Shown here: one piece after another, positions 1,628-22,710 of the stretch
Position numbering within the stretch: the stretch's first letter is position 1
Layout: each line of letters starts with the position of its first letter
Origin: Escherichia coli
GTDB lineage: Bacteria; Pseudomonadota; Gammaproteobacteria; Enterobacterales; Enterobacteriaceae
Direction: 5' to 3' (one strand)
Length of the DNA stretch: 64,000 bases
Assembly (NCBI RefSeq): GCF_003334305.1
Contig: NZ_QOWS01000011.1
Position numbers and translations under genes: made by a program
The notes under the pieces: model-generated
What the model saw: the letters and a program-made list of their open reading frames with translations, nothing else
Told to the model about the DNA's origin: nothing
Database searches by the model: none

Positions 1628-1631
1628 AACG

Positions 1632-1982
1632 TCAGGTCCGCGTAATGGGGCAGGCGGTAAAGCGCATCATTTCACCCAGCGTACGGGTAACCTGGCTAAG
1701 TGCATATTCAATCGCAGAAACATCACCAGTCAGCACTACGGCACCGGTAAAACGATCAAGAAAACCGATCTCTACAGCGCCTGATTTTGTGGCGATATCG
1801 CATGCGATGATAGATGCTTCGCTGGGGGTAATCGTCAGAATGCCAATAGCGGAAATGGTGTCTGGTAAACCCAATTTCTTAAACAGATCCTTCCCTGGAT
1901 TGGCAATGACATGTGCCAGCGTGACCTGCTTACCAGGGACATATTCCTGAATCATCCGTTCAGTTGTGTGCTGAGTTGTCAT
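1632..1982 (-). CDS. pduU: PduU, microcompartment shell protein
   Basis: 116 aa from ATG at 1982 (TAATG overlap with pduT stop); starts [24 protein letters not shown], close to recalled Salmonella PduU. Confidence 0.8.
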
Positions 1983-2536
1983 TATCCCTCCACCATCTGA
2001 CGCCACATGGCTTCATGTGGACGGGCAATCACCGACCGATAGACCAACAAACCTTTTTCCCCCGCACGCTCGCTGGCGACAGAGACCGCGTTATTAACAT
2101 CTGAAATATCGCCAGCAACCACCATGTAGCATTTACCGCCAATGCCAAAAGCCATATGTACGCGAACGAGAATGACATTCGCAGCTTTGACAGCACAATC
2201 GGCAGCGTCAATGCAGGCGGCGACACTCCAGGTTTCGACTACGCCGACAGCCCGGTGCTGCTCAACATGGTTAAGTCCGCTGATTGCAGTAAGGAGGCTG
2301 GGATGAATATTCGGCAGGACAAGACTGTCGACCAGCATTTCACCAGCAAGGGACGCTCCGCTGTTGATGGCCTGTTGCACCGCGCCCACATCGCCACCGA
2401 GCATCAGCAGAAATTTTCCGGGGCATAGCGTTTTGCTGACCAGTAACTCAACGTTGGCGCTTTTCAGCATGGCGTCGCCGGTTTCCATCCCTTTCGCGAT
2501 ACTGCTAAGTTCTAAAATACCTACCGCTTTCGACAT
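1982..2536 (-). CDS. pduT: PduT, microcompartment shell protein with tandem BMC domains
   Basis: 184 aa, two BMC-domain repeats ([10 protein letters not shown]... and [11 protein letters not shown]...); position between pduS and pduU. Confidence 0.85.
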
Positions 2537-2538
2537 GG

Positions 2539-3882
2539 TTAACCTCTCACAAGCGTAATCGCGTTTTCTGTCACATCGCTGACCATGCCATCAATACTGG
2601 CATGAATGGGGGCACCTAATGTGCCGTGTGGAATTTGACCTACACATTGCCCATGAACGACGCGATCGCCTTTTTGTACACACGCAATTGCGCTGGCACC
2701 GATGTGCTGGCGTAACAATAACGTCACTTTTTCGGGCTGAGGCACCTGTTCAGACAATGGCGCATCCTGATACCACGGGGTTAAGCCAAGTCTGGTTACC
2801 AGCCGTTTTACGGGAATCAGTCGATAATTTGCCATGGGATCTGCAGGATTTAAGGCACCTTCGTAGCGGAGATTTTGTGCGCGTAATTCCTGCTTAAGCA
2901 GGCGGTTTATGCGCATTGGTGAAATTCCTACCGGACAGGCGACACTGGCGCAGACGTTGCACTCTGAACAGGTGAGCGCTGTCAGTAACAGTTGCGGCGT
3001 GGCGAGCTGTTGGTAGTTAACCGCACGTACTAATAAATGGGGTGCCAGTTCGTGACCGATTAAATGACGTGGGCAGAGATCGGTACACAAGCGGCATTGC
3101 TCACAAACAGTTTTCGCGACGGCAAGTACGCTGCGGTCATTCTGCAATCGACGTTGGATCAGTGAATGAGAGTTGGGTAAAACCAGCAAGCCGCCAGTGG
3201 TTTTGCTGACTGGTGTGTCGAGCGATGTGATCAAACTTCCCATCATCGGCCCGCCATTGATAAAACCAGGAGCATCCACTGTTGCGCCGCCCGCCAGCGC
3301 CAGGACTTCACGTAAAGACATGCCGATGGGGACGGTTACCGTTATTGGTTTCGCCACTGCACCATTAACGGTGAGTGTGCGGCGCGTCACTGGATACTGT
3401 TGCTCGACGGCTCTGGTAATATTAAGTACGGTTTGAACATTATTGACCACCACACCGACGCTAACGGGTAATGCAGCGGGTGGAACGCGGCGACCAGTTG
3501 CCATCCAGATGGTCAGCACTTCGTCTCCTGCCGGGTAAACATCGGGCAAAATATGCAGGCGGATATCCGGTGGTAACAGTGGTGTGAGTGCGTTTATTGC
3601 CCGTTGATATTTCTCTTTCAGCGCGATGATTCCGCTGCTGGCCCCGGTGGCTTTCATCGCATAGTGAACACCGCGAAGCAGGCGGCTGGCTTGCTGCGCC
3701 ATTAACTGTTGATCCACTTTCAACATGGGTTCGCATTCCGCCGCATTCACCAGGAAAGTGTCAACACGCGCTTGTAGCTTAATATGGGTTGGAAAACCTG
3801 CGCCGCCAGCACCCACGACACCTGCTGCTTGTACTCGCTCGCGGATGGTCTGGTCGTCGCAGGAGGTTAACTTGACGTTCAT
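2539..3882 (-). CDS. pduS: PduS, cobalamin reductase (flavo-iron-sulfur protein)
   Basis: 447 aa; Gly-rich nucleotide-binding loop [15 protein letters not shown]; two Cys clusters [12 protein letters not shown] and [13 protein letters not shown] typical of 4Fe-4S ferredoxin motifs. Confidence 0.85.
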
Positions 3883-4991
3883 AACAACTCCTCGAGCAGT
3901 TCTGCAATTGCGGAGGCATCAGCCGCACGCGGGTTGGTACGCAACGTTGCATCCGCCAGTGCCGCCTGAACCATATCTGGTATGCGTATTGACCATTCTG
4001 CTTTTTTTTCTTTCAGCGCATTAGCAAAAGTCGGCAGCGTACAGGTTGTTTTAAGCTGCTCAATATGTTGAATAAGTGCATTCAGGCTGGCGGTGTCATT
4101 GGCGTTGTCCGGGCATAAATGGCACGTTTTCGCCAGCCGGGCATAGCGTTTGGCTGTGCGCGGATCGCCAGCATTAAAGCGGATAACTGCCGTGAGCAGG
4201 AGCGCATTCGCCAGTCCATGCTGCAGATGAAACTGTCCGCCGAGTTGATGAGCAATTGCATGGTTTAAACCGAGTCCGGCCTGGCTAAAGGCCATTCCTG
4301 CAAGCGTCGATGCATTATGCATTTTGCCACGGGTGGCAAGACAATCGCCTTTTTTCACTGCAGTGGGCAGGTATTGAAAAACAATTTGCACGGCTTTTTC
4401 GACCAGTGCATCCGTGAAGTCGCTGGCGCGAGGAGAAACATAAGCTTCAAGCGCATGGGTTAAAACATCCATCCCGGTATTGGCCGTTATCGCCGGTGGC
4501 ACGCTGACGATCAGAGATGGATCAAGGATCGCGATATCCGGATAAAGTGCATTATCGAAAAGGGGATATTTAATCCCTTTCTCAGGATCGCTGATGACAC
4601 AAGCACTGGTCACTTCGGAACCGGTACCGCTGGTGGTAGGAATGGCTACGCAGGTTTCAATTTCAATGCCACACTGGCGACCGAACCAGACAATCGCTTT
4701 TGCGGCGTCCAGGGCAGAACCGCCGCCAAAACCGATAACCACATCCGGGCGTAAAGTCTGCATTTGCGCAATGCCTTTCACCACGGTCTGGATAGTTGGG
4801 TCGGGCGTTATTTCGCTAAAAATACTAAGACGATTACTGTCGGGCAGCGCCTGATGCAACGTGTTAATGAGTGGTGAGCGTGCCAGAAAGACGTCGCAAA
4901 TAATCCAGATGTGTTTATGAGAGAAACGGCTAATTACCTTGAGACTTCCCGGTCCGCTGTATAAACGCGTCTGCAGTGAAAAAGTATTCAT
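3879..4991 (-). CDS. pduQ: PduQ, iron-dependent 1-propanol dehydrogenase
   Basis: 370 aa; Fe-ADH motif GFGGGSALDAAKA; operon position. Confidence 0.85.
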   Translation of the reverse strand: MNTFSLQTRLYSGPGSLKVISRFSHKHIWIICDVFLARSPLINTLHQALPDSNRLSIFSEITPDPTIQTVVKGIAQMQTLRPDVVIGFGGGSALDAAKAIVWFGRQCGIEIETCVAIPTTSGTGSEVTSACVISDPEKGIKYPLFDNALYPDIAILDPSLIVSVPPAITANTGMDVLTHALEAYVSPRASDFTDALVEKAVQIVFQYLPTAVKKGDCLATRGKMHNASTLAGMAFSQAGLGLNHAIAHQLGGQFHLQHGLANALLLTAVIRFNAGDPRTAKRYARLAKTCHLCPDNANDTASLNALIQHIEQLKTTCTLPTFANALKEKKAEWSIRIPDMVQAALADATLRTNPRAADASAIAELLEELL

Positions 4992-5001
4992 TTCCGTTTC
5001 T

Positions 5002-6387
5002 CTAGCGAATTGAAAAGCCGCTGGTTAACACGCAGCGTCGTGAGCGGGCAAAAGTCCGTGCTGACGTTGTCCCTTCTCCGGTCGGTGTTGCAATGGTAAA
5101 GGTCGTAAAGCCTTCGCCGCCGACGCCAATACCCGCCCAGGAGGGGCCGTTTTTGACAAAGATTGAGGTTTGCATAACGCGTGCGGCAAGGTTGAGCCGT
5201 GAGACGTTCTGCGAGTGCATAATTGCCGTGTGGTGCAAGCCGTCTTCCACTTTCAGTGCCAGGGTGAGAGCGCTATCAAAATCGTTGACCTTCACAATGG
5301 GCAGCATTGGCATCAGTTGTTCACAAGTAACCCAACTATCATTGGCGTCGACAACAGCAATCAGTAGGCGCGGCGCTTTTGCGGGCAAAGGGAGGCCTGC
5401 CGCTTCCAGCAAGGCTGATGGGCTTTTCCCAACCAGTTTTTTGTTGGCGCTACCGTCTGGCAGGCAAATTGCACGCAATTTCTCAGTTTGCTCATAGTTA
5501 AGAAGAAGTGCGCCAAAACTTTGCATCTGCTGAATTAAATAATCTGCCACTGATGCCACGACAATCAGGCTTTTTTCAGCAATACACGGCAGGTTGTAAT
5601 CAAATGAAGCGCCGTTGATGATGTCCTCGGCGGCTTTCACAATATCCGCCGTTTCATCGACGATGCACGGAGGGTTACCCGCTCCGGCACCAATCACTTT
5701 CTTGCCACTTTTCATTCCCATGGCGACGATCCCCGGACCGCCGGTAATCGCCAGAACGCTGATTTTAGGGTGCGCCATCATCTGTTCGGTGGCAGCAAAG
5801 GTCGGTTCAGATACGGTAACGATCAGGTTATGAATGCCACTACAGCGAAACGCGATGTCTTCGATTGTGGTAATCAGTTTTAACGAAACGTTTTTGGCAC
5901 CCGGGTGTGGACTGAAGTAGACGCTATTACCTGCTGCCAGCATGCTGATGCTGTTGTTAATGATGGTTTCCGTGGGGTTGGTGCTTGGCGTGACCGAGCC
6001 AATCACCCCAAACGGAGAGTACTCAAACAAAACCATGCCACCATCACCGGTTAGTGCTGTGGTGGTTAAATCTTCAATTCCTGGCGTGTTATCAAGTGCC
6101 GCTTTGTTTTTTAGGTACTTATCTTCTTTATTTCCCATCCCCGTTTCTTTGGCGCTTTCTTCTGCCAGTTCGGTAAGGCGGGGCATTAATTCTTCGCGAA
6201 TGGCGCTGATAATGGCGCTACGGGTTTTAAGCGGACACTGTTGAAAGCGTAAAAAGGCCTGGTGTGCTGCGCAGACCGCTTCATCAACAGTCTGGAAAAT
6301 AGCGTTTCTTTGCGTTCGTGGTGTAGCGGGGACAAGTTGCTCGCGCAGAATATTGCGGATCAGTGTTTCTAATTCAGAGTTATTCAT
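5002..6387 (-). CDS. pduP: PduP, CoA-acylating propionaldehyde dehydrogenase
   Basis: 461 aa; starts MNNSELETLIRNIL, close to recalled Salmonella PduP; aldehyde-dehydrogenase fold motifs (GAGNPPCIVDETAD). Confidence 0.85.
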   Translation of the reverse strand: MNNSELETLIRNILREQLVPATPRTQRNAIFQTVDEAVCAAHQAFLRFQQCPLKTRSAIISAIREELMPRLTELAEESAKETGMGNKEDKYLKNKAALDNTPGIEDLTTTALTGDGGMVLFEYSPFGVIGSVTPSTNPTETIINNSISMLAAGNSVYFSPHPGAKNVSLKLITTIEDIAFRCSGIHNLIVTVSEPTFAATEQMMAHPKISVLAITGGPGIVAMGMKSGKKVIGAGAGNPPCIVDETADIVKAAEDIINGASFDYNLPCIAEKSLIVVASVADYLIQQMQSFGALLLNYEQTEKLRAICLPDGSANKKLVGKSPSALLEAAGLPLPAKAPRLLIAVVDANDSWVTCEQLMPMLPIVKVNDFDSALTLALKVEDGLHHTAIMHSQNVSRLNLAARVMQTSIFVKNGPSWAGIGVGGEGFTTFTIATPTGEGTTSARTFARSRRCVLTSGFSIR

Positions 6388-7391
6388 TGGTTTACTCCCA
6401 CGTTAATTGCCGCCATTGCGCTTTGAGCAATATCCATGTCTTGTTCAACGCTACCGCCGCTGATGCCAAGCCCGCCAAGCAATTTTCCGTCACGCCAGAG
6501 GGGGAAGCCGCCACCAAAAGTGACGACTTTGCCTTGCATATGGCTTTCGAGCCCGTAAAGCGGCGCGCCGGGTTGCACGGTATCAGCAAGTTTGTGGGTT
6601 GCCGTTTTCATCGCCACGGCGGTCCAGGCTTTTTTCGGTGCCAGTTCACTGCTGACCAACAGGGCATCAGGCATCCGCCAGGTAACACTTTCTGTTCCGT
6701 TGGCATCAACAATGCTGATGACAACGGGAATATGCAGTTCATCCGCGCGCATTGCCGCACTACGAATGAGCTGGTGAAGATCCTGAAAAGTGAGCGGCAT
6801 TGTGCGTTCCTTCAATGCTGGTATGTGGTTGGCTTCGTGATAACGTTTTGTGATTTCCTGAATCATCAGGTTTTGATGAGCAACGTTGTCTTCCACGCGG
6901 GCGAGGGCATACAGACAATCGGAAAGTCGGTTGATATAGTGCAGCAAAACATTCCGGACGGTGGTTTCCGTTGTCAGTTCAACCAGACGTCTTTCAGCCC
7001 GTCGAGCCACTGTGCGGGCGAAATGCATGCGGCTCGCGGCTTCACATCGACCAGGCAGAATGAAGCTGTGAACTGGGGGGACGGCGTTCATTGCGCTATC
7101 GATCGCGTTTTCCAGCGCAGCAATTTCTTCCGTACCGATGTAACGCTGTTGCGCTGACGGCTGTTCACTTTCACTGGCGAGTTCGGCGCTAAACCAAAAT
7201 ATCTGTTGTTGAATGGCTTCCAGTAAGATGCGATGGCTTTCGATGGCGGTGGCGCAATAACACAGACTGAGTGTCGCGTTCAGTTCATCCAGCGTGCCAT
7301 AGGTTTCGACACGTAGATGAGTTTTGCTGACGCGCTGTCCGGTAAATAAAGACGTACTTCCTGAATCACCTGTTCGGGTATAAATTGCCAT
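6384..7391 (-). CDS. pduO: PduO, ATP:cob(I)alamin adenosyltransferase
   Basis: 335 aa; N-terminal PduO-type motif IYTRTGDSGSTSLF; overlaps pduP start by 4 nt. Confidence 0.85.
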   Translation of the reverse strand: MAIYTRTGDSGSTSLFTGQRVSKTHLRVETYGTLDELNATLSLCYCATAIESHRILLEAIQQQIFWFSAELASESEQPSAQQRYIGTEEIAALENAIDSAMNAVPPVHSFILPGRCEAASRMHFARTVARRAERRLVELTTETTVRNVLLHYINRLSDCLYALARVEDNVAHQNLMIQEITKRYHEANHIPALKERTMPLTFQDLHQLIRSAAMRADELHIPVVISIVDANGTESVTWRMPDALLVSSELAPKKAWTAVAMKTATHKLADTVQPGAPLYGLESHMQGKVVTFGGGFPLWRDGKLLGGLGISGGSVEQDMDIAQSAMAAINVGVNQ

Positions 7392-7402
7392 CTTTTAGCT
7401 CC

Positions 7403-7678
7403 TTAGCGCGAAAGCGTATCGACAATGCCGACCACTGCCAGGTCGATGGCCTCGTTAGGGCCTGAAAACACATGTCTGGCGCTGGAACCACTGCTGAGGA
7501 GTACCAACTCACCAACGCCTGCGCCGACTGAATCAACGGCAACTTCGTCGCCGGTTAATGGCGTGAGAGGCAGTTCGCCGTCAGCACTGATCCGGCGAAC
7601 CAGCAGCAGTTTTTTCCCGATCAGAGAAGGTGATTTTTGCGTGGATACTACCGCGCCAGTGACTCGAGCCAGATGCAT
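7403..7678 (-). CDS. pduN: PduN, microcompartment vertex (EutN/CcmL-family) protein
   Basis: 91 aa; [15 protein letters not shown]... typical EutN/CcmL pentamer sequence. Confidence 0.85.
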
Positions 7679-7681
7679 AAG

Positions 7682-8173
7682 TTACTCCTGCCTGATTAAC
7701 TGAATATTTCGGGTAATTGCCGCTTCACGAGCCAGTGCGGTCACACAACATTTCCGCTGTAAAACCAGTATTCCCGAGCTTAACTGTGCGATATCGGCAT
7801 AACTTAAAAGTCGATCACGATGAAGGTAGATCGGTTGCCCTTGTTCGTCGCACCAGCTTAGCGGTAGACGGGCGAGAGTCTTCAATTCAATGGCGTTCAG
7901 GAAATGACGCTGCAACGACAATTGAATGTGCAATCCCCAGGCTAACGCTTCGTGTATCTGAATCGCTGCTCGATCTGACGTTTCGTTCTCCGCAAGTTGT
8001 CGCAGCAGCGGCAGATCGACATATCGGATTTGTAATGACGCATACTGATGAACGCTCTCTTGAACGCTGGCGTCTCGCAGTTGAAAAACAGTCAGCACGA
8101 GTGTTTTTCCCGCACGTTGTTTAAGGCGAAAAACCACTTCGTCAACAATACGTTGCATCAGCATGTTATTCAT
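7682..8173 (-). CDS. pduM: PduM, microcompartment structural protein
   Basis: 163 aa, operon position between pduL and pduN; no catalytic motif. Confidence 0.75.
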   Translation of the reverse strand: MNNMLMQRIVDEVVFRLKQRAGKTLVLTVFQLRDASVQESVHQYASLQIRYVDLPLLRQLAENETSDRAAIQIHEALAWGLHIQLSLQRHFLNAIELKTLARLPLSWCDEQGQPIYLHRDRLLSYADIAQLSSGILVLQRKCCVTALAREAAITRNIQLIRQE

Positions 8174-8802
8174 GGCACTGACACCAGTGTGGCAAAAACG
8201 TCAGGGCTATCAGCGCCTGCGGCGTTGGCCTCATCGGTATCAATATGCATTTCAAGACGCATATCCGGAGAGACGCGAACAGCGACGTTTTCGAATATCA
8301 GTCGTCGCTCATCACCTTCAATGGCAACCGCCACTTTATCGCCATGCGTAACGCCATAAATCAGGGCATCCAGCGGAGACATATGAATATGCCGTTGCGC
8401 GACAATAACGCCAGATGTGATCTCCAGTTCCGCAAATGGGCTTATCAAACGAATCCCCGGAGTGCCGCTGAGATCGCCTGACATGCGTAGCGGGGCGGTG
8501 ATCCCTAACGTTCTGGCGTCCGTCCGGGAAATTTCCACCTGACTTGCATTGCGTAGCGGCCCCAACAAGCGAACGTTGTGCAATTTGCCTTTTGGTCCCT
8601 CCAGCGTAACAACCTGTTCCGCAGCGTATTGGCCAGGTTGCATTAACGGCTTTTTCTCGCTAATCGGTTGTTCAGGAAAAAGACGCAAATAATCCGCTGT
8701 TGAAAGATGTATATGGCGACTGGAAACGCCCAGTGGGATAGGGCGCTCGCGCATCTCATCCAGAATCTGGTTCACTGTTTCCTGCAAGGTTTGTTTATCC
8801 AC
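8170..8802 (-). CDS. pduL: PduL, phosphate propanoyltransferase
   Basis: 210 aa; starts MDKQTLQETVNQILDEM; size and position match PduL. Confidence 0.85.
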   Translation of the reverse strand: MDKQTLQETVNQILDEMRERPIPLGVSSRHIHLSTADYLRLFPEQPISEKKPLMQPGQYAAEQVVTLEGPKGKLHNVRLLGPLRNASQVEISRTDARTLGITAPLRMSGDLSGTPGIRLISPFAELEITSGVIVAQRHIHMSPLDALIYGVTHGDKVAVAIEGDERRLIFENVAVRVSPDMRLEMHIDTDEANAAGADSPDVFATLVSVP

Positions 8803-8804
8803 TG

Positions 8805-9227
8805 CTACTCCCCTCGCTTATTGGCGTACAGGCAAAGTGAGCGGGGCTCACCTTTTTGCCGCTGACATGCCGGGTCAAGACACAAATTACAACTGATAAT
8901 CTCTGAGGTGACGGTTGTTGCTGGTGTTTTGCTTGTTTCAACCGTCACGGTCAATGCTTCAGTTGTGTGGGGCAGAATGCCGTCTCCCGGGCGGGCAATC
9001 ACTTTGTGTGCGACAAGGCCATTTCGCTGTCCGGCGAAACTGGCTCCCGTCGCGATCGCCGCATTAACCGAGGCGACGTCACCGGTGATTTTGATGAGCG
9101 TCCAGCCTGAGCCATTGGTCTTCTCAAGGCCAACCAGCGTGATGGACGCGGCTTTTGCCATAGCGTCTGCGCAACTGATGGCGAGAGCCAGACCACTGAC
9201 TTCAAGTAATCCCAGTGATTGCTTCAC
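8805..9227 (-). CDS. pduK: PduK, microcompartment shell protein with C-terminal Cys-rich extension
   Basis: 140 aa; N-terminal BMC domain (LGLLEVSGLALAISCADAMAKAA), C-terminal tail with CNLCLDPACQ...C. Confidence 0.8.
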   Translation of the reverse strand: MKQSLGLLEVSGLALAISCADAMAKAASITLVGLEKTNGSGWTLIKITGDVASVNAAIATGASFAGQRNGLVAHKVIARPGDGILPHTTEALTVTVETSKTPATTVTSEIISCNLCLDPACQRQKGEPRSLCLYANKRGE

Positions 9228-9250
9228 GCTGTGCTCCTTAGTAAATGGGG

Positions 9251-9526
9251 TTATGCCGATTTAGGTAAAATAGCCTCAACATCACTGTGTGGGCGCGGGA
9301 TGACATGGCAGGATTTCACTTCGCCAACGGCGCTTGCGGCGGCGCTTCCTGCGTCAACGGCGGCTTTTACTGCGCCAACATCGCCACGGACCATCACTGT
9401 AATCAGACCCGAACCAATCTTTTCATAGCCAACCAGTTGCACGTTGGCGGATTTAACCATGGCATCTGCAGCTTCAATTGCGCCAACTAACCCTTTTGTT
9501 TCAACCAGTCCTAGTGCGTTGTTCAT
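9251..9526 (-). CDS. pduJ: PduJ, major microcompartment shell protein
   Basis: 91 aa; canonical BMC domain [26 protein letters not shown]. Confidence 0.9.
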
Positions 9527-9545
9527 ACAGCGTTTCTCCTGTGGA

Positions 9546-9896
9546 TTATGAGTGGCATTCCCTGAAGGGAATGCCTTTTACCAGGCGGGCAGCGTTATTG
9601 CCGATGCTGCGCCGGGTATGGTTATCTTGTTGATACATCAGCGTAAACAGTGGCGCTGATGCCGGTAAGTTTTTGTAATGCACAATCAGCTTTTCCCGGT
9701 CGCAGGCTATGCCAACCAACAGGGGGGACTGACGAGCAGCCTGCCAGGCGCTATCGATGACTTCACCTGACGGGATATGTTGAATGCGAAAGGGGATGCC
9801 TTCCTCTTCAATGCCAAGAAGCACCTCATTCCATGTACTGATACAGTCACCTATTTCCGTAACGACAATAGCGGGCGTATGTTCTTTACTTTCCAT
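9546..9896 (-). CDS. pduH: PduH, diol dehydratase reactivase small subunit
   Basis: 116 aa; position after pduG with overlapping start/stop. Confidence 0.8.
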
Positions 9897-11718
9897 GAGC
9901 CAACTCCCTGTGCCAGGAAATCAGTAGCCCGGTAGCTACCGCATTGCGCGGGCCTTCACTACCACGGATATTCCCCCGTCCGGCGACCAATCGATAATGC
10001 GCCAATGCATCGGTGACTAACTGCGGGACTTCGAAATCCAGGGAAGAACCGCCCACCAGAACGACGAACGGAATATCGCGAATATTTCCGCCTGGACTTA
10101 CCTGACGTAGCGCGCGCAGGGCATTGGTTACGAAGACGCGCTCTTTCGCACTGCGGCGAACAGCACGTACTTTTTCCTGTGTTAAATCGCCGGGAATAGG
10201 CACCAGTTCGTCAGGTTTCACCACACAAACGCGGGCAAATACATGAGGGGACAGCGGAGTAGGGAAGAACTGAACGCTTCCGTCTTCATGGCGTAAATGG
10301 AACAGGCTTTCTACTTTTGCCAACGGGTATTTTTTGATTTCTTCTGCCAGATAACGATCATTTAAGCCCAGCTCACGAGCGATAATCATCGTTACCATGT
10401 CGCCCGCTCCCGCAAGGTGAGTGGCAACGATTTCCCCACTCTGATTGATGATGGAGGCATCGGTAGAGCCTGCACCTAAGTCCAGAATTGCCAGTGGACG
10501 TGTGGTTCCAGGGGTAGTCAAGGCCCCCTGAATGGCGGCTTCTGCTTCTGCGCCTCCGACCTGAACATCAACATGCAGTTTTTGCTTAATTTCACTGGCG
10601 ATCATCGCCATTTGCAGACGGTCGGATTTCACCATAGAGGCAATACCCACAGCCTGTTCCAGTGAAAATTCACCTGCCAGACCACCGGTTACGCTGACGG
10701 GGACAGAGGTATCTATCGCCAGCAAATCCTGAATAAAAATTTCGTTGCTGGGTTTGTTGGTCAGTTCCGCCATGGTCTGGCGAACATGTTCCAGCATTCC
10801 GCCGATGTTGGTGCCTGGTTCTCCCGTCACGTTTTCCAGTTTTGGGCACTCACCGACCGCTTTCATAATGGCATCGGCACCAGCAGCTACATCAACGCGC
10901 GTTGTGCGCCCGGCAGAAAGCAGTTCGATATTTCCGGCGGGTATCGAACGGGCTTTAACGTCGCCAGAGGGCGTTTTCACTACCACTGCTGAACGGTTGC
11001 CGATTAGCGCCCGCGCGACAGGAACAATATTTTTAGTCTCTTCAGCATTGAGGGCGAATACGGTGGCAATCCCATACGGGTTAGACAGGGTTTCGATAAC
11101 TTTCCCGGGAACGGCAACTTCAATTGCTGCCAGCATGCCGAGCGGAATACGATCGATGTAGAGGACTTCATCCACAATAGGTAAAGGAATTTCCAGGCGG
11201 TTATTGACCAGTACGCCATCGTCGCGTTGCAGAATAACGCCAGTCAGCTGATATCCGGCGCGTACGGAGGCGTTTATCATCGTCGCGATATCGGCAAAAT
11301 CAAATGCCGATGACACCACCAGGATGTAAGGTGTGTCCGCCGGGCGTGTTAATAACTCTTGCGGAGTGATGGTGAGCCCTACGCCCAGCCCCACTCCGCC
11401 CGGAGTTTTCGGGTTGTGACCGATCATGGTTGATTCGGTGATGATAGTTTCAGTGATGGTTTCCATCGCCACATCACCAATGACCGGAGTTGCTTCGTTG
11501 ATACGAATAAGCGAAATATCGCTAACATTGATGCCGACTTTTTTCGTTGCCTGTGCGAGCGCCTCCTGAATACCATGGACGTTACGCAACGTACCTTTAA
11601 TTCCGGTGGTTTCCGCCAGGGCGCTACTCACGAACGACAACTCTCCAGTTGCACTGAGCGTTGCCAGCGCAACCTCTGTTGATGAGTTGCCGATATCAAT
11701 GCCTGCTATATATCGCAT
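9886..11718 (-). CDS. pduG: PduG, diol dehydratase reactivase large subunit
   Basis: 610 aa; starts MRYIAGIDIGNSSTEVALA (actin/HSP70-like ATPase fold); size matches PduG. Confidence 0.9.
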   Translation of the reverse strand: MRYIAGIDIGNSSTEVALATLSATGELSFVSSALAETTGIKGTLRNVHGIQEALAQATKKVGINVSDISLIRINEATPVIGDVAMETITETIITESTMIGHNPKTPGGVGLGVGLTITPQELLTRPADTPYILVVSSAFDFADIATMINASVRAGYQLTGVILQRDDGVLVNNRLEIPLPIVDEVLYIDRIPLGMLAAIEVAVPGKVIETLSNPYGIATVFALNAEETKNIVPVARALIGNRSAVVVKTPSGDVKARSIPAGNIELLSAGRTTRVDVAAGADAIMKAVGECPKLENVTGEPGTNIGGMLEHVRQTMAELTNKPSNEIFIQDLLAIDTSVPVSVTGGLAGEFSLEQAVGIASMVKSDRLQMAMIASEIKQKLHVDVQVGGAEAEAAIQGALTTPGTTRPLAILDLGAGSTDASIINQSGEIVATHLAGAGDMVTMIIARELGLNDRYLAEEIKKYPLAKVESLFHLRHEDGSVQFFPTPLSPHVFARVCVVKPDELVPIPGDLTQEKVRAVRRSAKERVFVTNALRALRQVSPGGNIRDIPFVVLVGGSSLDFEVPQLVTDALAHYRLVAGRGNIRGSEGPRNAVATGLLISWHRELAHGK

Positions 11719-11727
11719 AGTTCGTCC

Positions 11728-12246
11728 TTAATCGTCGCCTTTCAGTTTTTTGCGCTCGACATAAAGTTCCGCAGCTTCACGGACAAATGCAGCACAAATT
11801 TTGGCCTGATAACGCTGTTCAAGATCGTCAGCAATGGCAATAAGTTCTTGCTTAGTTGAACGATAAGGGCGTAACGCATTGTAGATTTCGAGGATGCGAT
11901 CATCTGGTACTGAGGTAAGCTCAGCGGCGCGTTCAAAATTCATCGCCAGACGATCGCGACCAGCATCTCTGGCAATCGCAGCCTGAATACGCAATGTTTC
12001 AGGGGTAATGCGCATATCCAGGGCGGTGACGTTATCGCTTAGCACATTTTCCAGAGTGAAATCGTCGAGCGTTTTATTGGTCGCTGTTTTAACCCATTCC
12101 GGATGTTTATTTGCCAGCGGGTAATCCGTCACTTTGGCGCTCAGTATTGATGCGTTGGGGACCGCAGAAACAGGAGCTGCATCCTGTAAACTGTTCATGC
12201 GGTTCAACACGTCCCTGACCATCGACTCAATTGCATCGGTATTCAT
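11728..12246 (-). CDS. pduE: PduE, B12-dependent diol dehydratase small subunit
   Basis: 172 aa; position after pduD. Confidence 0.85.
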   Translation of the reverse strand: MNTDAIESMVRDVLNRMNSLQDAAPVSAVPNASILSAKVTDYPLANKHPEWVKTATNKTLDDFTLENVLSDNVTALDMRITPETLRIQAAIARDAGRDRLAMNFERAAELTSVPDDRILEIYNALRPYRSTKQELIAIADDLEQRYQAKICAAFVREAAELYVERKKLKGDD

Positions 12247-12260
12247 GAAGGTTTCCTTTG

Positions 12261-12929
12261 TTAAAACGTCACGCGCAGTTCTTGCGGTTTTTTGCCAGTG
12301 ACCACGTACTTCGTCTCTTTAATATGCAAAATGGCAGATTTGGCCTGGTATTTCGGCCGCGCCATTTGATCGTTGAGGGTCGGCACCGGTTGTGGAGACT
12401 CGCGCTTCGCATAACGCGCGGCGTTTTTGCCAATCTGACGATAAGTATCCAGCGTCAACAAAGGCGCTTGTGGGAAAAGTTCCAGGTTAGACAAGGGAGG
12501 AAGTCCCTGCTGGTGGATAACCGTTGTGCCTTTCGACTGAATACCGATAGCAATACCTGAACCACTAAGACGATCGCCTTCGACTGCTACGAATGCGACA
12601 TCGGACGATTTAAAGCAGCGAATCACACGGGCTTTAATGCCTTCTTCTTCGATACCGGCAATCACTTCGCGCAAGATGTTTTTATGCGGAATACCGATGA
12701 TATTGACGGTTTGCGCCAGGCCGAACGCCGGGCCTACAGCAATAATGACTTCATCTTGCTGAGTGCCTTGTTGGGCTTCGCCAATTTCGGTCAGAAAATT
12801 TCCGGTATCTGGCGCGGAAGAGACAGTTGCAGAGACAGGTGCGCGAAATGAAACGGACTTGTCGCTGGGTTGCATTTCTGCCAGCACGTCTTCGATAATC
12901 TGACGCAGTAATTTTTCGTTAATTTCCAT
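12261..12929 (-). CDS. pduD: PduD, B12-dependent diol dehydratase medium subunit
   Basis: 222 aa; starts [19 protein letters not shown]. Confidence 0.85.
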
Positions 12930-12938
12930 TTCTCACCC

Positions 12939-14603
12939 TTAGTCAATTTCGTTGGGATCAAGTGCACCGGGAATATTTTTGATCTCTTCCCAGCGTTCCC
13001 CTTGCAGGCGGTAACCTGTAGCCGGTCCGGCGTAATCATTGACGTCATTGACCGCAGAGAGCACTTGTCCGTCATCGACGATGATGGCTGAGGTATGGAG
13101 ATAATCGCCGGTCAGTTTTGCTTTTTGCATGTTGAGCATGTCCTGGGCGACATCGGTAAAACCGCCTTGCGCCAGGGCTTTCACCACTTCCAGGCTGTTC
13201 CGGTTTTTATTGATAATCTCCTGGGCGAACTTGATGTCTTCCACAATATTGCGCTCAGGCATATCTTTTGAACCGTGGGCATAGGTTGCCGCTTCGACTT
13301 CTTCATCGGTAATAGGCGGTAGTCCCATACCGGCAAAGACAGCCTGTAAAGCGCGAGCGGCTTTATTGCGGATAGCGATAACATCTTCTTCGCGTACTGG
13401 TCGCAGCCCACCATCAACCTTCAGGTCACGCTGAATGACGTTGTAATCATCGAAGTCTTCAGCATCTTCGTTTGAACCAGCAAACATGTTGTCGTAGTTC
13501 GGCACAGCGGAAAAACCGGAAGAGATAAAGTCGGTGCCTGGCAGAAATTGCATCAGGAAACGTGCGGTACGGCGCATATCCGAGTGGGTAAAGGTCTGGT
13601 CATTACTGGAGGCGCATTCCAGATCCAGCGATGAGCAAATTAAGTTTTCCGCTAATACTGCGCGGATGCCTGATGGCACAGCTGATGGAACACCGATGCA
13701 GCTTACCGAACCATTCTGCAGACCCTGAACGCCTGCGGCTTTGGTGATGTAAATGCAACGAGCCTCGAGGTAAAGCATTGATTTGCCTTCCGCGTAACCC
13801 ATCTGTACTTCAGAGCCGGAGCCGGAAGTAAAGCGCATTTTTAAGCCACGAGAAGCATAGGATGACGCGAGAAACCCTTTTGACCACGGGGTATCATCAC
13901 CATCGGTGAAAACAGGTTCTGTACCATAGACAGAAATTGTTTCGGCGTAACAGGTGTGGCCTAACATACCGAGTTTCAGTTCGGTGGCTTCTTCCAGTGA
14001 ACACTGGGTCAAGACGCCCGGACGTCCCACCTGTGAGCCGACCAGCAGGGCGATGGCGTTGAACGGTGCATAGCGAGCAACGGCAACGGTGGTTTCCTGT
14101 TCATCAAACCCGCGCCATGCGCCTTCAGCTGCGTCGGCGGCAATTTGTACTGGGTTATCTTTGACGTTGGTGACATGAGCCTGTTGTGATGGTGTTCGAC
14201 GGGCGCGCATTTTCTGCATCGCCATCATCATCTCTACCACGTTCATCTGCGAAACCACTTCGACGATTTTTGCAGGCGTCATTGCTGTGGTAAGGGGAAC
14301 GATATCGCTACGTTTGACATTTGGATCGCACAACATATTGGCAAGTTTTACCGAATCCATCGCGATGACTTCTTCGGCGCGCGCGAGATTGATGCCGTAG
14401 CGGGCGATAAAGTGGTCGATCAGGTCAAACTGGCTGGCGGGTTTTCCATCCAGTTCGGTAACGACGCCGTTAACAATTTTGATTGACGGTTTAGGATCGT
14501 TCGGGCTTTCCATCGCAATAAAGCCTTCTTCAATCCACTCTTTAACGAAACCGTCCTGGTTGACCGGGCGTTTTGCCAGTGCTTCAAATCTTTTCGATCT
14601 CAT
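12939..14603 (-). CDS. pduC: PduC, B12-dependent diol dehydratase large subunit
   Basis: 554 aa; starts MRSKRFEALAKRPVNQDGFVKEWIEEGFIAMESPNDPKPSIKIVNG, near-identical to recalled Salmonella PduC. Confidence 0.95.
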   Translation of the reverse strand: MRSKRFEALAKRPVNQDGFVKEWIEEGFIAMESPNDPKPSIKIVNGVVTELDGKPASQFDLIDHFIARYGINLARAEEVIAMDSVKLANMLCDPNVKRSDIVPLTTAMTPAKIVEVVSQMNVVEMMMAMQKMRARRTPSQQAHVTNVKDNPVQIAADAAEGAWRGFDEQETTVAVARYAPFNAIALLVGSQVGRPGVLTQCSLEEATELKLGMLGHTCYAETISVYGTEPVFTDGDDTPWSKGFLASSYASRGLKMRFTSGSGSEVQMGYAEGKSMLYLEARCIYITKAAGVQGLQNGSVSCIGVPSAVPSGIRAVLAENLICSSLDLECASSNDQTFTHSDMRRTARFLMQFLPGTDFISSGFSAVPNYDNMFAGSNEDAEDFDDYNVIQRDLKVDGGLRPVREEDVIAIRNKAARALQAVFAGMGLPPITDEEVEAATYAHGSKDMPERNIVEDIKFAQEIINKNRNSLEVVKALAQGGFTDVAQDMLNMQKAKLTGDYLHTSAIIVDDGQVLSAVNDVNDYAGPATGYRLQGERWEEIKNIPGALDPNEID

Positions 14604-14621
14604 AAATCTGCCTCAGAGAAT

Positions 14622-15434
14622 TCAGATGTAGGAAGGGCGATCGTTTTTCGGTGTATCGCCGAGAGTCGAAAGCACGGTTTTACCGATTTCGCGTGCGGAG
14701 ATGACCGCCTGGCGGACTGCGCCGGAGTCACCCGAGATAATCAGAATGACTTCATTGCTGTAGCTGGTGCCTTGAGCGGGGGAGCTGTATGCCACAACAT
14801 CCACATTGGCGGACTTCAGCGCGGTGTCGGCCATCAGAACACCCACAGCGGCTGGAGCGCCGACAATAACGCCGCAAGCCCGTCCCAATGGTGCACCAAA
14901 CGCTTTTTCCAGTGCATAGCTGGCGCGGGCGGTATATTGCAGCTCAAGATGTCCGGCTTCGTTGGCATAGACATCGCCAAAGGTCCGATCGAGTTCTTTC
15001 AGGGCGACTTCAATACCGCGTTTCACGTCAGAAACATCGTTGCCACCTAAGAGGATCAATGAGCCATGTCCGGCACCGCCTTTAGTATCCCGAGGAAGTT
15101 CAATGCTAATAACTTCAGTGTTGGTGGCTTTTACCGCTTCATCAGCGGCCATAATGTGTGGCCCTGCGCCAATACGCGCACCCAGAATGCCAATGGAACG
15201 ATAGCGTTTTTCAAGTTTCATCGCGTCCAACAGGGCGCTATCAACGTTCGCAATGACCAGACCTACAGTGTCGCCAATAGCGGTGCCAACAAATTCCGTT
15301 AACGTGCAGCTTTTTTCTGCCATAGCCGTCTCTCGTGTTTGATGAGTGGTTTCCGGGAGAACCTCATGCTCTGGCGTCGCTACGCGAGCGATGACCTGCG
15401 CCATGATCTGTTCGACCAGTTCATTGCTGCTCAT
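14622..15434 (-). CDS. pduB: PduB, microcompartment shell protein (tandem permuted BMC domains); internal start for PduB' at 15323
   Basis: 270 aa; in-frame Met at codon 38 ([13 protein letters not shown]) corresponds to the PduB' start described in Salmonella. Confidence 0.9.
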
Positions 15435-15715
15435 GGGTTAATTCCCTTTGGTAAGATTTTTTCGACATCGGTATGTGGGCGGGGAATAACGTGTACGGCT
15501 TTTACTTCACCGACGTTACGCGCAGCTGCGGCACCTGCGTCTGTTGCCGCTTTTACCGCCCCGACATCACCACGAACGATGACGGTCACCAGCCCGGAAC
15601 CTATTTTTTCGTAGCCGACCAGCAAAACATTTGCCGACTTCACCATGGCGTCTGCGGCCTCTATGGCGGCAGTTAAGCCTTTGGTTTCTACCATTCCTAA
15701 CGCTTCTTGTTGCAT
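15431..15715 (-). CDS. pduA: PduA, microcompartment shell protein
   Basis: 94 aa; [30 protein letters not shown], canonical BMC domain; first gene of operon. Confidence 0.95.
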
Positions 15716-17036: not shown

Positions 17037-17238
17037 CGAAATACTCTGGCAGTTATAAACATTTATTTTTTTACTGTTTGTGATCTGCTTTCCGAACTTA
17101 TTAAAAAGTCTCCCGCTTCACGGAGGCTTTTGTTATTGTCCTTTGTGCTTCTCGTCAGTAAATCATCAGGGATGATGTGAAGATTAAATGTAAAACAATT
17201 GTTTTGCTATAACAATAAATTAACTGGGAGGTTTTATC

Positions 17239-18153
17239 ATGATTTCTGCGGCGACACTTAATTCAGAACTCATTAATAAAATCGCGCAGGATTTTGCGCA
17301 GGCGACCAGCCTTGCGGTTGTCGTGGTCAATATTCACGGCGATGAAATTTCCGAGCTGTTTAACTTCACTCCATTTTGTCAGATGATGCGGCAACACCCT
17401 CAGCTAAGCACTCGATGTCGCATGAGCGATCGTTGTGGGGGCCTGGAAGCCTCTAAATCCGATCAGCCTTGTATTTATCGCTGTCATGCCGGATTAACCG
17501 ATTTCTCTATTCCACTGGTAATCGCCGGACATTTAGTCGGTTTTGTATTGTGCGGGCAAGTTCGTCTGCGTAATGATGATGTCGATTTGGTCGATATTCT
17601 GAATGTCGATGATTGCTGGCAGGCAGATCCCGAATTACTTAATGAATTCCGCAAAGTTCCTGAGATGGATTACTCAAGAGTTATGGCCTCTGCTGATTTG
17701 TTGAAGTTGATTGTGGAAAATTGCCTCAAAAAACAACTCAATTTTGTGGTTATTAAAGAGAACAAATCTCGGTCAGATTCGGTGCGCCAGACTCGTGCGC
17801 CTAATCCCCACGACAATAAAATGAAAAAAGCTTTACGCTATATTGATGCGCATTTATCAGACGATTTGCGTCTGGAAGATGTCGCCTCGCACGTTTATCT
17901 AAGTCCTTATTATTTCAGTAAGTTATTCAAGAAATACCATGGAATCGGTTTTAATGCGTGGGTAAACCAACAACGGATGGCCAGCGCTCGTGAGTTACTG
18001 TGCCATAGTGACTGGAGCATCGCCAGCATTGCGCGTAATTTAGGTTTTTCGCAAACCAGTTATTTTTGCAAAGTTTTCCGTCAGACTTATCAGGTTACGC
18101 CGCAGGTGTATCGACAGCAAGTGAGTGAAAATGCGGCGATGGAAACGGTATAG
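17239..18153 (+). CDS. pocR: PocR, AraC-family activator of pdu/cob genes
   Basis: 304 aa; MISAATLNSELINKIAQDFAQA..., C-terminal AraC-type HTH; close to recalled Salmonella PocR. Confidence 0.9.
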   Translation: MISAATLNSELINKIAQDFAQATSLAVVVVNIHGDEISELFNFTPFCQMMRQHPQLSTRCRMSDRCGGLEASKSDQPCIYRCHAGLTDFSIPLVIAGHLVGFVLCGQVRLRNDDVDLVDILNVDDCWQADPELLNEFRKVPEMDYSRVMASADLLKLIVENCLKKQLNFVVIKENKSRSDSVRQTRAPNPHDNKMKKALRYIDAHLSDDLRLEDVASHVYLSPYYFSKLFKKYHGIGFNAWVNQQRMASARELLCHSDWSIASIARNLGFSQTSYFCKVFRQTYQVTPQVYRQQVSENAAMETV

Positions 18154-18269
18154 AATAAATGCTAAAAAAAGGGAAGGTTTAAATAAACGCTGGAATGAAT
18201 AATTAACGTTATTTACGTGTTATGGGAAAAGTGAAATCAGCTCATAACATACGCTGACAGGTGTGGCAC

Positions 18270-18470
18270 ATTTGTGCCTGGGAAGAGGGTGAAAATCCCT
18301 CGCAGCCCCCGCTGCTGTAATGCTGACAAACCCGAAAATGCCACTGATCGCGAGATTGGGAAGGTCGGGTGAGGATGACGCTAAGCCAGAAGACCAGTCT
18401 GTCAGTCAATACCAACAACTTCGGTGGGAAGTGGGTTGCCCGGAAGCGTCCGGTAGAGTACTGGCGCGTC
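18270..18470 (+). ncRNA. cobalamin (AdoCbl) riboswitch-like leader, cob-operon type
   Basis: Conserved riboswitch core GGAAGAGGGTGAAAATCCCTCGCAGCCCCCGCTGCTGTAA at 18281-18320, GCCACTG at 18340-18346, B12-box-like AGCCAGAAGACCAG at 18383-18396; boundaries approximate. Confidence 0.6.
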
Positions 18471-18565
18471 TTTATACCCCTACCACCCTGAAAGGATCAG
18501 GGTATGGCGGCATCATTTAGTTCTTTCATCGCAGTGCCGACAGGCACCAGGGCTGCATTCAAGGT

Positions 18566-19072
18566 GTGGCAATATTGTTTCATGGCTTATCAACCAGACC
18601 GCCATTACAGGAAATTAAGTGGAGGGCGAGAGGCATGAAAACGATAAAACCCGAATCGATAGCTCTTTTTTGCCTCTTATCTGGAGATGTGGATCTGGCG
18701 AAACATCTGGCTGAAATATTGCCAATAACCTGTTTTGTTGGTGAGGACTGGCAGCAAGATTTCCAGCCTCTTGATGGTGGGCCTGTGCAATCGTTATCAG
18801 ATGCGTATAGCGATTATTCAGTGCTGCTATTGATAGCAGCTGAAAGCGAGATATCCGTACCAGAATGGCTCGCTCATTCTGAGGGAACGACGGTAATTTT
18901 GATTGCAGAACACAATGCCCGTTTGCTGACTGGTCCGGCTGGTGGGGCTGTAGCATTAATCCATTATCTGAATGAAATCTGTCATTCCAGAGAAACCGCT
19001 GTCAATGACGCATTTTGTCAGACGTTAACACGAGGAAGTCTGGCTATTCCACATAGCCATCTTCTTTCGTAA
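18566..19072 (+). CDS. hypothetical protein (168 aa), unassigned ORF at the position occupied by cbi genes in Salmonella
   Basis: ORF track only; no motif recognised; sits between riboswitch-like leader and cobU. Confidence 0.3.
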   Translation: MAILFHGLSTRPPLQEIKWRARGMKTIKPESIALFCLLSGDVDLAKHLAEILPITCFVGEDWQQDFQPLDGGPVQSLSDAYSDYSVLLLIAAESEISVPEWLAHSEGTTVILIAEHNARLLTGPAGGAVALIHYLNEICHSRETAVNDAFCQTLTRGSLAIPHSHLLS

Positions 19073-19205
19073 TGGATTGAGAATGCTGGATTTTTAATTA
19101 TATTACGCGCAGTATTAATCGCGTAAATGTTTTGCGGTCAGCAACGGTGGGGGATCCATTGTTCTGTTCAATGAATACCATCATACAATTGAATCAGGAG
19201 TCGGT

Positions 19206-22634: not shown

Positions 22635-22710
22635 TGGCTCCTCTGACTGGACTCGAACCAGTGACATACGGATTAACAGTCCGCCGTTCTACCGACTGAA
22701 CTACAGAGGA
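22635..22710 (-). tRNA. asnV: tRNA-Asn (GUU)
   Basis: 76-nt reverse complement of TCCTCTGTAGTTCAGTCGGTAGAACGGCGGACTGTTAATCCGTATGTCACTGGTTCGAGTCCAGTCAGAGGAGCCA; anticodon loop CTGTTAA. Confidence 0.95.

Follow-up and report, generated by a model that had tools for sequence, protein, structure and literature searches.

A collapsed cob operon beside pdu in Escherichia coli keeps its cobalamin riboswitch and a truncated cbiG under apparent purifying selection

Why would an Escherichia coli strain without the genes for corrin ring synthesis keep a cobalamin riboswitch between pocR and cobU, and what could this riboswitch still control? The question is raised by a 64,000-nucleotide stretch of E. 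coli DNA (contig NZ_QOWS01000011.1, assembly GCF_003334305.1), called here the window. An earlier reading made from its letters alone (the sequence-only reading) had proposed that only about 1 kb separates the two genes, that the cbi operon is missing in between and that an orphan riboswitch was left in front of cobUST. The distance was right: 1,052 bp lie between pocR stop and cobU start in the window, whereas the interval spans 14,703 bp in Citrobacter (locus L089) and 14,713 bp in Salmonella diarizonae (locus L090). Both of these longer intervals contain cbiABCDETFGHJKLMNQOP, and their flanks match the window, with pduBA, pduF and pocR on one side and cobUST and ldtA on the other. The collapsed locus is the standard, already annotated state of pdu-positive E. 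coli and is thus real and not novel. What is new is the pattern of selection on the riboswitch and on a truncated cbiG (cbiG') across two genera, independent of cobUST.

The covariance model RF00174 of Rfam, which the earlier reading had named as the appropriate check, matches the leader over its entire length (model positions 1-189 of 189) with 107.8 bits against a gathering score of 31.5 (E = 4.8e-26). The leader that had been placed at 18270-18470 is therefore a real riboswitch, with different limits: the aptamer extends from 18242 to 18416 and the expression platform to 18503. The B12 box (AAGCCAGAAGACCAGTC, 18383-18399) aligns with the model segment AGCCAGGAGACCuGCC and is nearly invariant over nine species, only two of its 17 positions being variable. 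The platform, whose sequence is near-invariant from E. coli to Salmonella and Citrobacter (alignment A1), contains an enhancer-like element (GGTGGGAAGTGGGT, 18423-18436) and a ribosome-binding-site (RBS) hairpin, ACCCTGA-AAGGA-TCAGGGT (18485-18503). The loop of this hairpin carries the Shine-Dalgarno sequence, and the ATG at 18504 follows immediately 3'. Structure prediction yields both this hairpin and an alternative GGUGG/CCACC pairing with the segment 18423-18436. From about 18200-18253 to 18512, identity to the Citrobacter and Salmonella cob leaders is 81-86%. Judged by its sequence, the riboswitch is orthologous to the leader of the Salmonella cob operon: it is a leader with an RBS-hiding platform, followed here by a stump of cbiA (cbiA'), cbiG' and cobUST. 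The term "orphan" does not suit it, since it still heads its own operon stump, with RBS hairpin and start codon of cbiA in place. Binding of adenosylcobalamin (AdoCbl) and a response of expression are predicted, and the purifying selection on the aptamer described below provides indirect support.

The anatomy of the interval was established by comparison with about 60 enterobacterial pocR loci. The alignments show 18154-19205 to be a cob operon that collapsed in its original chromosomal place. The loss of the cbi operon in place, as proposed earlier, can be resolved by alignment to Salmonella and Citrobacter into three deletions. One removed about 240 bp after pocR, another cbiA from about codon 20 through the end of cbiF, and the last one cbiG from about codon 120 onward, up to 145 nt before the end of cbiP. 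Instead of a complete cbiA-cbiP between leader and cobU, there remain 44 codons of cbiA', 145 codons of cbiG' and about 145 nt of cbiP. Homology to cbiA reaches to about 18512-18572, so that the first 20 or so codons of cbiA' are still CbiA-like; its start reads MAASFSSFIAVPTGT and the Salmonella counterpart MAARHHAFILAGTGSG. The TGA stop of cbiA' overlaps the ATG of cbiG' (ATGA), and cbiG' has its own Shine-Dalgarno sequence, GGAGG, at 18621-18625. The sequence-only reading had seen a single unassigned open reading frame (ORF) in the interval: it is a real one (18635-19072, 145 aa), and it can be assigned, being the 5' third of cbiG. It corresponds to CbiG from residue 1 to about residue 115-125, followed by a divergent tail, and is 42-47% identical to CbiG from Citrobacter, Salmonella and Klebsiella over residues 1-112. 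The NCBIfam model NF004463 (cobalt-precorrin-5A hydrolase) matches it with 69.6 bits (E = 2.6e-19), far from the cutoff of 546. Positions 18513-18630 and the cbiG' tail (residues ~125-145) gave only chance-level blastn and tblastx matches to full operons. Further downstream, 19068-19210 matches the 3'-terminal part of cbiP from Citrobacter, with 63.5% identity over 148 nt (E = 5.8e-7). Where the operon is intact, cbiP abuts or overlaps the start of cobU; here, the decayed cbiP tail includes the cobU Shine-Dalgarno sequence and a promoter-like site, TTGAGA-N16-TATATT (19077-19104), kept in Escherichia and in K-12.

A separate E. coli allele, represented by the protein P0001 (188 aa, one Logan contig), has cbiA' and cbiG' in one frame (...RKLWRARGMKTIKPES...). 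It resembles the Scandinavium fusions described below, with translation into cbiG' kept despite a changed junction.

We compared the locus between species. Lineages found through pocR, whatever the state of the ORF, gave a four-lineage set made of E. coli, E. whittamii and two cryptic-clade genomes; E. albertii, E. marmotae and Escherichia sp. E4736 were added through a protein search, giving seven lineages. The dN/dS values are counting estimates (NG86 for cbiG'). As shown in Table 1, aptamer and platform change about 3.5-fold more slowly than neutral sites.

Table 1. Rates of change along the interval between Escherichia species.
Segment	Divergence between species	Fitch steps per site
Aptamer	5-7%	0.23
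Platform	3-8%	0.26
pocR-aptamer spacer	20-23%	0.49
cbiA'	18-27%	0.80
cbiG'	16-21%	0.64
pocR third codon positions		0.82

The aptamers of the seven Escherichia lineages score 105.6-112.8 bits, that of Salmonella 106.9. All seven lineages have a 44-codon cbiA', the ATGA overlap and a cbiG' of 144-145 codons with one in-frame indel, and four further E. coli pathotypes carry the same open ORFs. When neutral evolution was simulated along the observed tree, none of 20,000 runs left all ORFs open in the seven lineages. For the four lineages sampled without bias, the probability that all ORFs stay open was 0.003 (0.009 for cbiG' alone). The mean dN/dS of cbiG' is 0.43 (range 0.27-0.67), as compared with about 0.75 for sequences simulated as neutral but stop-free and 0.02-0.17 for the flanking genes. 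The cbiA' peptide, for its part, drifts at a neutral rate (mean dN/dS 0.71, median 0.53). Given the slowly changing aptamer and platform, the open ORFs and the dN/dS of cbiG', we conclude from these comparisons that the riboswitch and translation from the old cbiA ATG are under purifying selection, and the CbiG' sequence modestly so.

The same arrangement is found where no cobUST lies at the locus. In E. fergusonii (L101), pocR is followed by a riboswitch of 112.9 bits, a 49-codon leader ORF, an overlapping cbiG' of 156 aa and then ldtA. The 49-codon ORF encodes a peptide unrelated to cbiA' of E. coli, and identity between the two species is 87% in the aptamer, 94% in the platform and 45% in cbiA'. 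For cbiG', dN/dS is 0.29 at a dS of 1.4 (ldtA likewise 1.4; pduF and pocR are saturated), and the 156-aa form is the predominant one in a cluster of 69 E. fergusonii sequences. Five Scandinavium lineages, including "Enterobacteriaceae bacterium RIT691", possess pocR, a riboswitch of 102.6-103.4 bits and an in-frame cbiA'::cbiG' fusion followed by nac, again with no cobUST at the locus. In four lineages, the fusion comprises 179 codons; an in-frame deletion of 12 nt reduces it to 175 in the fifth. The aptamer differs by 0-4% between these lineages and the ORF by 9-24%; dN/dS of the cbiG part is 0.36 and the neutral chance that all five would be open is 0.002. E. albertii (L084/L085, 6436-7880) also keeps the cassette, with a cobU pseudogene (which has lost its P-loop and shows an internal stop and gaps of about 148 nt), cobT deleted and cobS intact (dN/dS 0.02). 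Since the cassette occurs without cobUST at the locus (E. fergusonii, Scandinavium) and cobUST without the cassette (pdu-negative E. coli), the conserved unit is made of pocR, riboswitch, leader ORF and cbiG', and cobUST is an optional downstream passenger.

The decay of cobU in E. albertii was at first sight a sign that the riboswitch had long outlived cobU. We discarded this argument: dS relative to E. coli is 0.36-0.49 for pduF, pocR and cbiG' and 1.0-1.26 for cobS and ldtA, and the age of the decay cannot be read because the cobU-cobS-ldtA side is simply far more diverged than the pdu-to-cbiG' side. This jump in dS implies a probable recombination boundary near the cbiG'/cobU junction, the pdu-to-cbiG' block having apparently been exchanged between Escherichia species. 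Hafnia paralvei (L051, 11570-17504) was likewise considered as a further case and carries no weight, as it looks like a recent independent deletion. Its riboswitch is followed by a cbiA'::'cbiF fusion ORF and a full-length cbiG, and from cbiH onward the operon is replaced by an OLD-family ATPase (687 aa) and a UvrD-like helicase (694 aa), which look like a Gabija-type defence pair. In E. fergusonii, a second microcompartment-type cluster lies just past ldtA (L101, 5691-8471), with a PTAC phosphotransacylase, a bacterial microcompartment (BMC) shell protein and a radical-SAM activase; it is probably a glycyl-radical-enzyme microcompartment.

What, then, is the CbiG' protein? A true CbiG has about 350 aa, scores above the family cutoff and comprises the domains CbiG_N, CbiG_mid and CbiG_C, all three of which are present in the full-length CbiG of L089 and L090; the 145-aa CbiG' does none of this. 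The core motif GATGIAVRxxAPLxxDKxxDPAVVVIDE...SGHxGGAN is replaced, with several residues deleted (seven in alignment A2). A Pfam scan of CbiG' gave no CbiG_N match and only a spurious one to Nup96 (E = 0.046), and a sequence search of the PDB gave no relevant match. The AlphaFold2 model, of moderate confidence, is an alpha/beta domain with a long C-terminal helix (pLDDT 75, pTM 0.69), for which the one meaningful Foldseek match in the PDB is to the N-domain of the CbiG homologue of S. solfataricus (3eeq_B; probability 0.99, TM 0.52). The other Foldseek matches in the PDB are generic Rossmann-like folds, all with E >= 0.03, and give no functional lead. In an alignment read by eye, the positions common to the CbiG' of Escherichia, E. 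fergusonii and Scandinavium appear to belong mostly to the hydrophobic core. Altogether, this suggests a folded, fast-evolving small protein. By sequence and predicted fold, CbiG' is a degenerate Rossmann-like CbiG N-domain that cannot act as cobalt-precorrin-5A hydrolase, because it lacks the mid and C domains, retains only 36 of the 68 family-conserved N-domain residues and is accompanied by no other cbi gene in the E. coli genomes searched. In the LF82 genome, the ORF is named CbiG (LF82_328) and is transcribed in culture, with 16.7 and 13.0 reads per kilobase per million (RPKM), pocR having 7.3 and 10.8 and pduF 0.7 and 3.3 (PMC4509574). Two stand-alone "CbiG_N" proteins, P0054 and P0056, were examined as a possible new family and rejected; they come from split cbiG genes within complete operons, probably frameshifts or assembly errors.

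The distribution of the unit in E. coli is tied to that of pocR. Of 5,426 complete E. coli genomes, 645 contain pocR DNA and 645 the riboswitch-remnant segment, one to one and always on the chromosome. Carriers include the enteropathogenic strain E2348/69, the adherent-invasive strain NRG857C and the probiotic A0 34/86. RefSeq already labels the spot with "riboswitch" plus "hypothetical protein" or "cobalamin biosynthesis protein". The sequence-only reading had conceded that the arrangement would not be novel if it were the usual one, and this proved to be so in 645 of 645 pocR-positive complete genomes. The same reading would have fallen had cbi genes been found elsewhere in the genome, and no DNA similar to Citrobacter cbiA-cbiD was found in the 5,426 complete genomes. 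In the literature covered, to which Lawrence and Roth 1995 and 1996 do not belong, we found no description of the pocR-cobU junction. Without pocR, about 88% of E. coli genomes keep cobUST and lack the cassette, the coding sequences being intact in every pdu-negative strain inspected. In pdu-negative E. coli, K-12 included, the cassette was lost by deletions associated with insertion sequences (IS) and ending inside cbiG'. In K-12, a cbiG' pseudogene made of the final ~170 nt is all that is left, pdu, pocR and the riboswitch having disappeared together with the 5' portion of the gene.

Several individual strains are worth describing in this respect. The deletion ends at window position 18901 in K-12 (L002) and O104:H4 (L096), beside IS5 or IS4 remnants, and at about 18733 in GF54 (L003), where it is joined to a pduV fragment. 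These varied end points inside cbiG' point to repeated independent loss of pdu, with cobU always spared. In E. coli Combat13F7 (L095, 1637-3205), pduO is joined to the middle of the riboswitch, and only the equivalent of 18368-18640 is left of that region; pocR, pduF and pduA-N are gone, and the 145-aa cbiG' and cobUST remain. Finally, in Escherichia sp. MOD1-EC7003 (L038, 11455-18930), pocR is followed by a complete cbiA-cbiH of Citrobacter type, whose CbiA-G proteins share 83-97% identity with those of Citrobacter. Either de novo B12 genes occur in a rare Escherichia lineage, or the assembly was mislabelled or contaminated.

How would the riboswitch be transcribed? The ~240 bp that are conserved after pocR in Salmonella, Citrobacter and Klebsiella (alignment A1) are missing from the window, and also from the other Escherichia and from the one Scandinavium sequence aligned. 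This block holds a promoter-like TTGTCA-N16-TAAAAT, located in Salmonella (L015, 11000-11027) about 480 nt upstream of cbiA. The window thus does not have a control region of the Salmonella type, with a promoter right after pocR and a leader of about 470-480 nt. A scan blind to PocR-dependent promoters found no sigma-70-like site in 16900-18300, nor between pduF and the aptamer, and no terminator-like site was seen between the pocR stop and the aptamer. As no promoter was found ahead of the riboswitch and no terminator after pocR, transcription probably runs on from the pocR message into the riboswitch.

The balance of these observations tips, if only modestly, towards a working B12-repressed cassette whose conserved product would be the truncated CbiG', with a secondary, read-through control of cobUST. 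We propose the following mechanism. Transcription would enter the riboswitch from pocR. When AdoCbl is scarce, the enhancer-like element would open the RBS hairpin and ribosomes would start at the old cbiA ATG; the leader ORF would be translated, and reinitiation at the overlapping cbiG' start, or its unmasking, would then allow CbiG' to be made. With AdoCbl bound, the hairpin would hide the Shine-Dalgarno sequence and leave the cassette untranslated, and the transcript would probably be shortened by Rho or by decay. Selection would maintain the riboswitch, translation from the cbiA ATG and the CbiG' protein, in a unit that travels with pdu and pocR. In E. coli, the switch probably also modulates the pocR-driven transcription that reaches cobUST. 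We regard this effect as secondary because cobU has its own promoter-like site, because cobUST survives without the cassette and because the cassette survives without cobUST at the locus. The earlier suggestion that the riboswitch could now gate the ORF and/or cobUST fits the conservation data.

Several points weigh against this proposal. The copies from Scandinavium, E. albertii, E. marmotae and E. fergusonii were found by their intact protein, which is an ascertainment bias, so that only the four-lineage test is free of it. For a real protein, a dN/dS of 0.3-0.4 points to weak constraint, and nearly half of the family-conserved N-domain residues (all but the 36 of 68) have been lost. Any function of CbiG' would be new. 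Given its own Shine-Dalgarno sequence, cbiG' would come under riboswitch control only through coupling or polarity, and a composition scan, in itself uninformative, detected no C-rich, G-poor rut-like tract for Rho loading in 18400-19250. Moreover, the cassette is lost whenever pdu is lost, which may only reflect their adjacency.

One would also wonder what a conserved CbiG' could do. It is quite unlikely, in our view, that it is a domesticated protein made only at low AdoCbl and acting on Pdu or on corrinoid handling. If it were, the cbiA' stump would be a pure leader ORF relaying the decision of the riboswitch by translational coupling. One possibility is an anti-activator restraining PocR or pdu expression until B12 is available, which by analogy would mirror the "no cofactor, no microcompartment" logic of the Listeria antisense RNA for corrinoid auxotrophs. 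Alternatively, CbiG' could be a helper that binds corrinoids or cobinamide and is induced when B12 runs short.

On the other hand, the cassette could be a mere translated conduit. The riboswitch would then be kept for B12 feedback and pocR-linked induction of cobUST, with the open ORFs shielding the transcript from Rho and CbiG' being junk. This is rather unlikely, even though it accounts well for ORFs that stay open while the cbiA' peptide drifts neutrally. It also agrees with the position of cobUST directly downstream in E. coli, E. marmotae, E. whittamii and related clades, with the ancestral logic of an operon in which cobUST are the distal genes and with the precedent of the btuB riboswitch, where a block of translation is followed by Rho termination (PMC11162775). 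However, the cassette is equally conserved in front of ldtA in E. fergusonii and of nac in Scandinavium, and E. albertii keeps it despite its damaged cobU and missing cobT. The dN/dS of cbiG' (0.29-0.43) is below the value expected for an open but neutral frame (~0.75), the promoter-like site of cobU is conserved, cobUST persists without the cassette in most E. coli genomes, and the lack of a rut-like tract speaks against this explanation too. The constraint at the amino-acid level is also left unexplained if the riboswitch acts in cis on pocR, ligand-dependent events downstream changing the 3' end or stability of the pocR mRNA and so tying the PocR level to B12. The absence of promoter and terminator between pocR and aptamer would suit such an effect, as would the missing promoter-bearing block in Escherichia and the aligned Scandinavium sequence, the adjacency of pocR and aptamer in every cassette-bearing lineage and the one-to-one co-occurrence with pocR in E. 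coli. Yet an OFF-type switch would lower pocR mRNA at high B12, the opposite of what a B12-dependent pathway needs, and we find the idea very unlikely.

We give hardly any credit to a functionless relic, that is, debris which has not yet decayed or a hitch-hiker moved with pdu by recombination between Escherichia species. The region is plainly a deletion remnant, CbiG' has lost the core motifs of its family, and the E. albertii dS values suggest that the pdu-to-cbiG' block was exchanged between species. But the neighbouring remnants (cbiA' peptide, cbiP tail, pocR-aptamer spacer) decayed at neutral rates and the aptamer and platform did not. Survival of the ORFs is improbable under neutrality by each of the three estimates given above, and the architecture is kept at a dS of 1.4 and in a second genus. 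The working cassette with CbiG' as its product thus remains the explanation that we prefer.

The features of the locus are listed in Table 2. Positions 18100-19260 of the window are 100% identical to E. coli strain M8 and belong to chromosomal DNA.

Table 2. Features in and around the pocR-cobU interval (window positions).
Feature	Position	Strand	Basis
pduA-pduV operon (pduABCDEGHJKLMNOPQSTUV)	1184..15715	-	PGAP annotation of the identical M8 region; ORF lists
pduF	16188-17036	+	PGAP annotation of the identical M8 region
pocR, AraC-type activator of the pdu/cob regulon	17239..18153	+	NCBIfam NF047788 PocR equivalog, 554 bits (cutoff 500); named pocR in M8
Short pocR-riboswitch spacer	18154..18241	+	Alignment A1; 88 nt from pocR stop to aptamer
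Cobalamin (AdoCbl) riboswitch aptamer	18242..18416	+	Rfam RF00174
Expression platform	18417..18503	+	Predicted RBS hairpin and alternative pairing
cbiA', 44-codon leader ORF	18504..18638	+	Begins at ancestral cbiA ATG
cbiG', 145-aa ORF	18635..19072	+	NCBIfam NF004463, profile 1-125 of 351
Decayed cbiP end, non-coding spacer	19073..19205 (cbiP-like match 19068-19210)	+	Alignment A3
cobU, nucleotide-loop assembly	19206-19751	+	NCBIfam equivalog, 246.6 bits; PGAP
cobS, nucleotide-loop assembly	19748-20491	+	NCBIfam and PGAP annotation
cobT, nucleotide-loop assembly	20503-21582	+	NCBIfam and PGAP annotation

The pdu operon is not complete in the Salmonella sense. The list of genes there is said, after Bobik et al. 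in 1999, to run from pduA to pduX (pduABCDEGHJKLMNOPQSTUVWX). In the window, pduA-V are present, and pduV (1184-1627) is directly adjoined by tmaR, with neither pduW nor pduX at the locus. The genes pduO, pduS and pduGH are annotated as intact in the identical region of M8. The claims that pduX is absent, that pduO, pduS, pduGH and cobUST are kept and that Pdu is therefore run on salvaged, that is imported, corrinoids thus hold. The strain has the gene content of a cobinamide salvager: cobUST are intact, with a dN/dS of 0.02-0.17 between Escherichia species, and the cbi genes are absent.

Around the locus, the pduF-pocR spacer contains a match to the enterobacterial small RNA STnc230 (Rfam, 74.8 bits; 17095-17178, minus strand), kept in all Escherichia and Salmonella loci examined, whose terminator hairpin (17104-17131) also reads as a plus-strand terminator after pduF. 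Past ldtA, three tRNA genes of equal score surround nac and cbl (22638-22710 and 25047-25119 on the minus strand, 26868-26940 on the plus strand); according to the K-12 annotation, they are tRNA-Asn genes. At this tRNA/nac/cbl spot after ldtA, strain M8 harbors a mobile element with RepL, MobQ and type IV pilus genes.

Carriage of pdu is known to be associated with fitness and virulence in adherent-invasive, enteropathogenic and canine E. coli, all of which have to import their corrinoids. How microcompartment expression and the last steps of B12 assembly are matched to cofactor supply is not described in the literature that we searched. With the cassette, all pocR-positive E. coli, and more widely Escherichia and Scandinavium, have a second selected cobalamin riboswitch besides that of btuB, which offers a testable handle on this matching. 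The locus also illustrates, in a natural case, how a regulatory RNA and pieces of genes can outlive the pathway that they served, with a vestigial ORF, cbiA', that appears to be kept only for being translated. If the cassette were inert, the finding would shrink to a documented deletion scar.

A parallel can be drawn with several known systems. The Listeria RNA AspocR, antisense to pocR, and EutX/Rli55 of Enterococcus and Listeria are B12 riboswitch systems that tie microcompartment regulators to B12. As in the window, a B12 riboswitch lies physically beside the regulator of a B12-dependent microcompartment, and the host profits from inducing the latter in step with its cofactor supply. These are, however, non-coding RNAs (an antisense RNA and a protein sponge), whereas the present riboswitch is on the same strand as pocR, downstream of it and followed by protein-coding ORFs, its regulatory link to PocR being hypothetical. 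With K-12, the window shares the cobUST-ldtA-tRNA-Asn-nac-cbl neighbourhood, and cobUST is 96-99% identical. The K-12 cobUST is reportedly a cobinamide-salvage locus, as stated by Lawrence and Roth in 1995; in both cases, there is no corrin ring synthesis and only assembly of the nucleotide loop. Unlike the window, K-12 and most E. coli have neither pdu and pocR nor the riboswitch, and their cbiG' lacks its 5' part. A class of "Cbi salvagers", which assemble the nucleotide loop without corrin ring genes, has been described (PMC6461909).

CbiG' is homologous to true CbiG over its N-terminal ~115 residues and its predicted fold matches the N-domain of 3eeq, but it has a third of the length and occurs in genomes without other cbi genes. 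The AdoCbl riboswitch of E. coli btuB switches translation off and then causes Rho-dependent termination early in the ORF (PMC11162775). With the same ligand class and the same host, it could by analogy be a model for the effect of the cassette on downstream transcription; it differs by its locus, by its paralogous aptamer and by the full functional gene that it gates in place of vestigial ORFs. The closest relative is the Salmonella cob leader, which is orthologous in sequence, nearly equal in score (107.8 bits in the window, 106.9 in Salmonella), identical in RBS hairpin and start codon and similarly located between pocR and the cob genes. That leader is reported, by Ravnum and Andersson in 2001, to be an AdoCbl riboswitch in which an RBS hairpin is combined with a translational enhancer repressed by B12. 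The window differs from it in having lost the ~240 bp that bear the promoter and in the gene that is gated: a 44-codon stump coupled to a truncated cbiG, instead of cbiA-cbiP.

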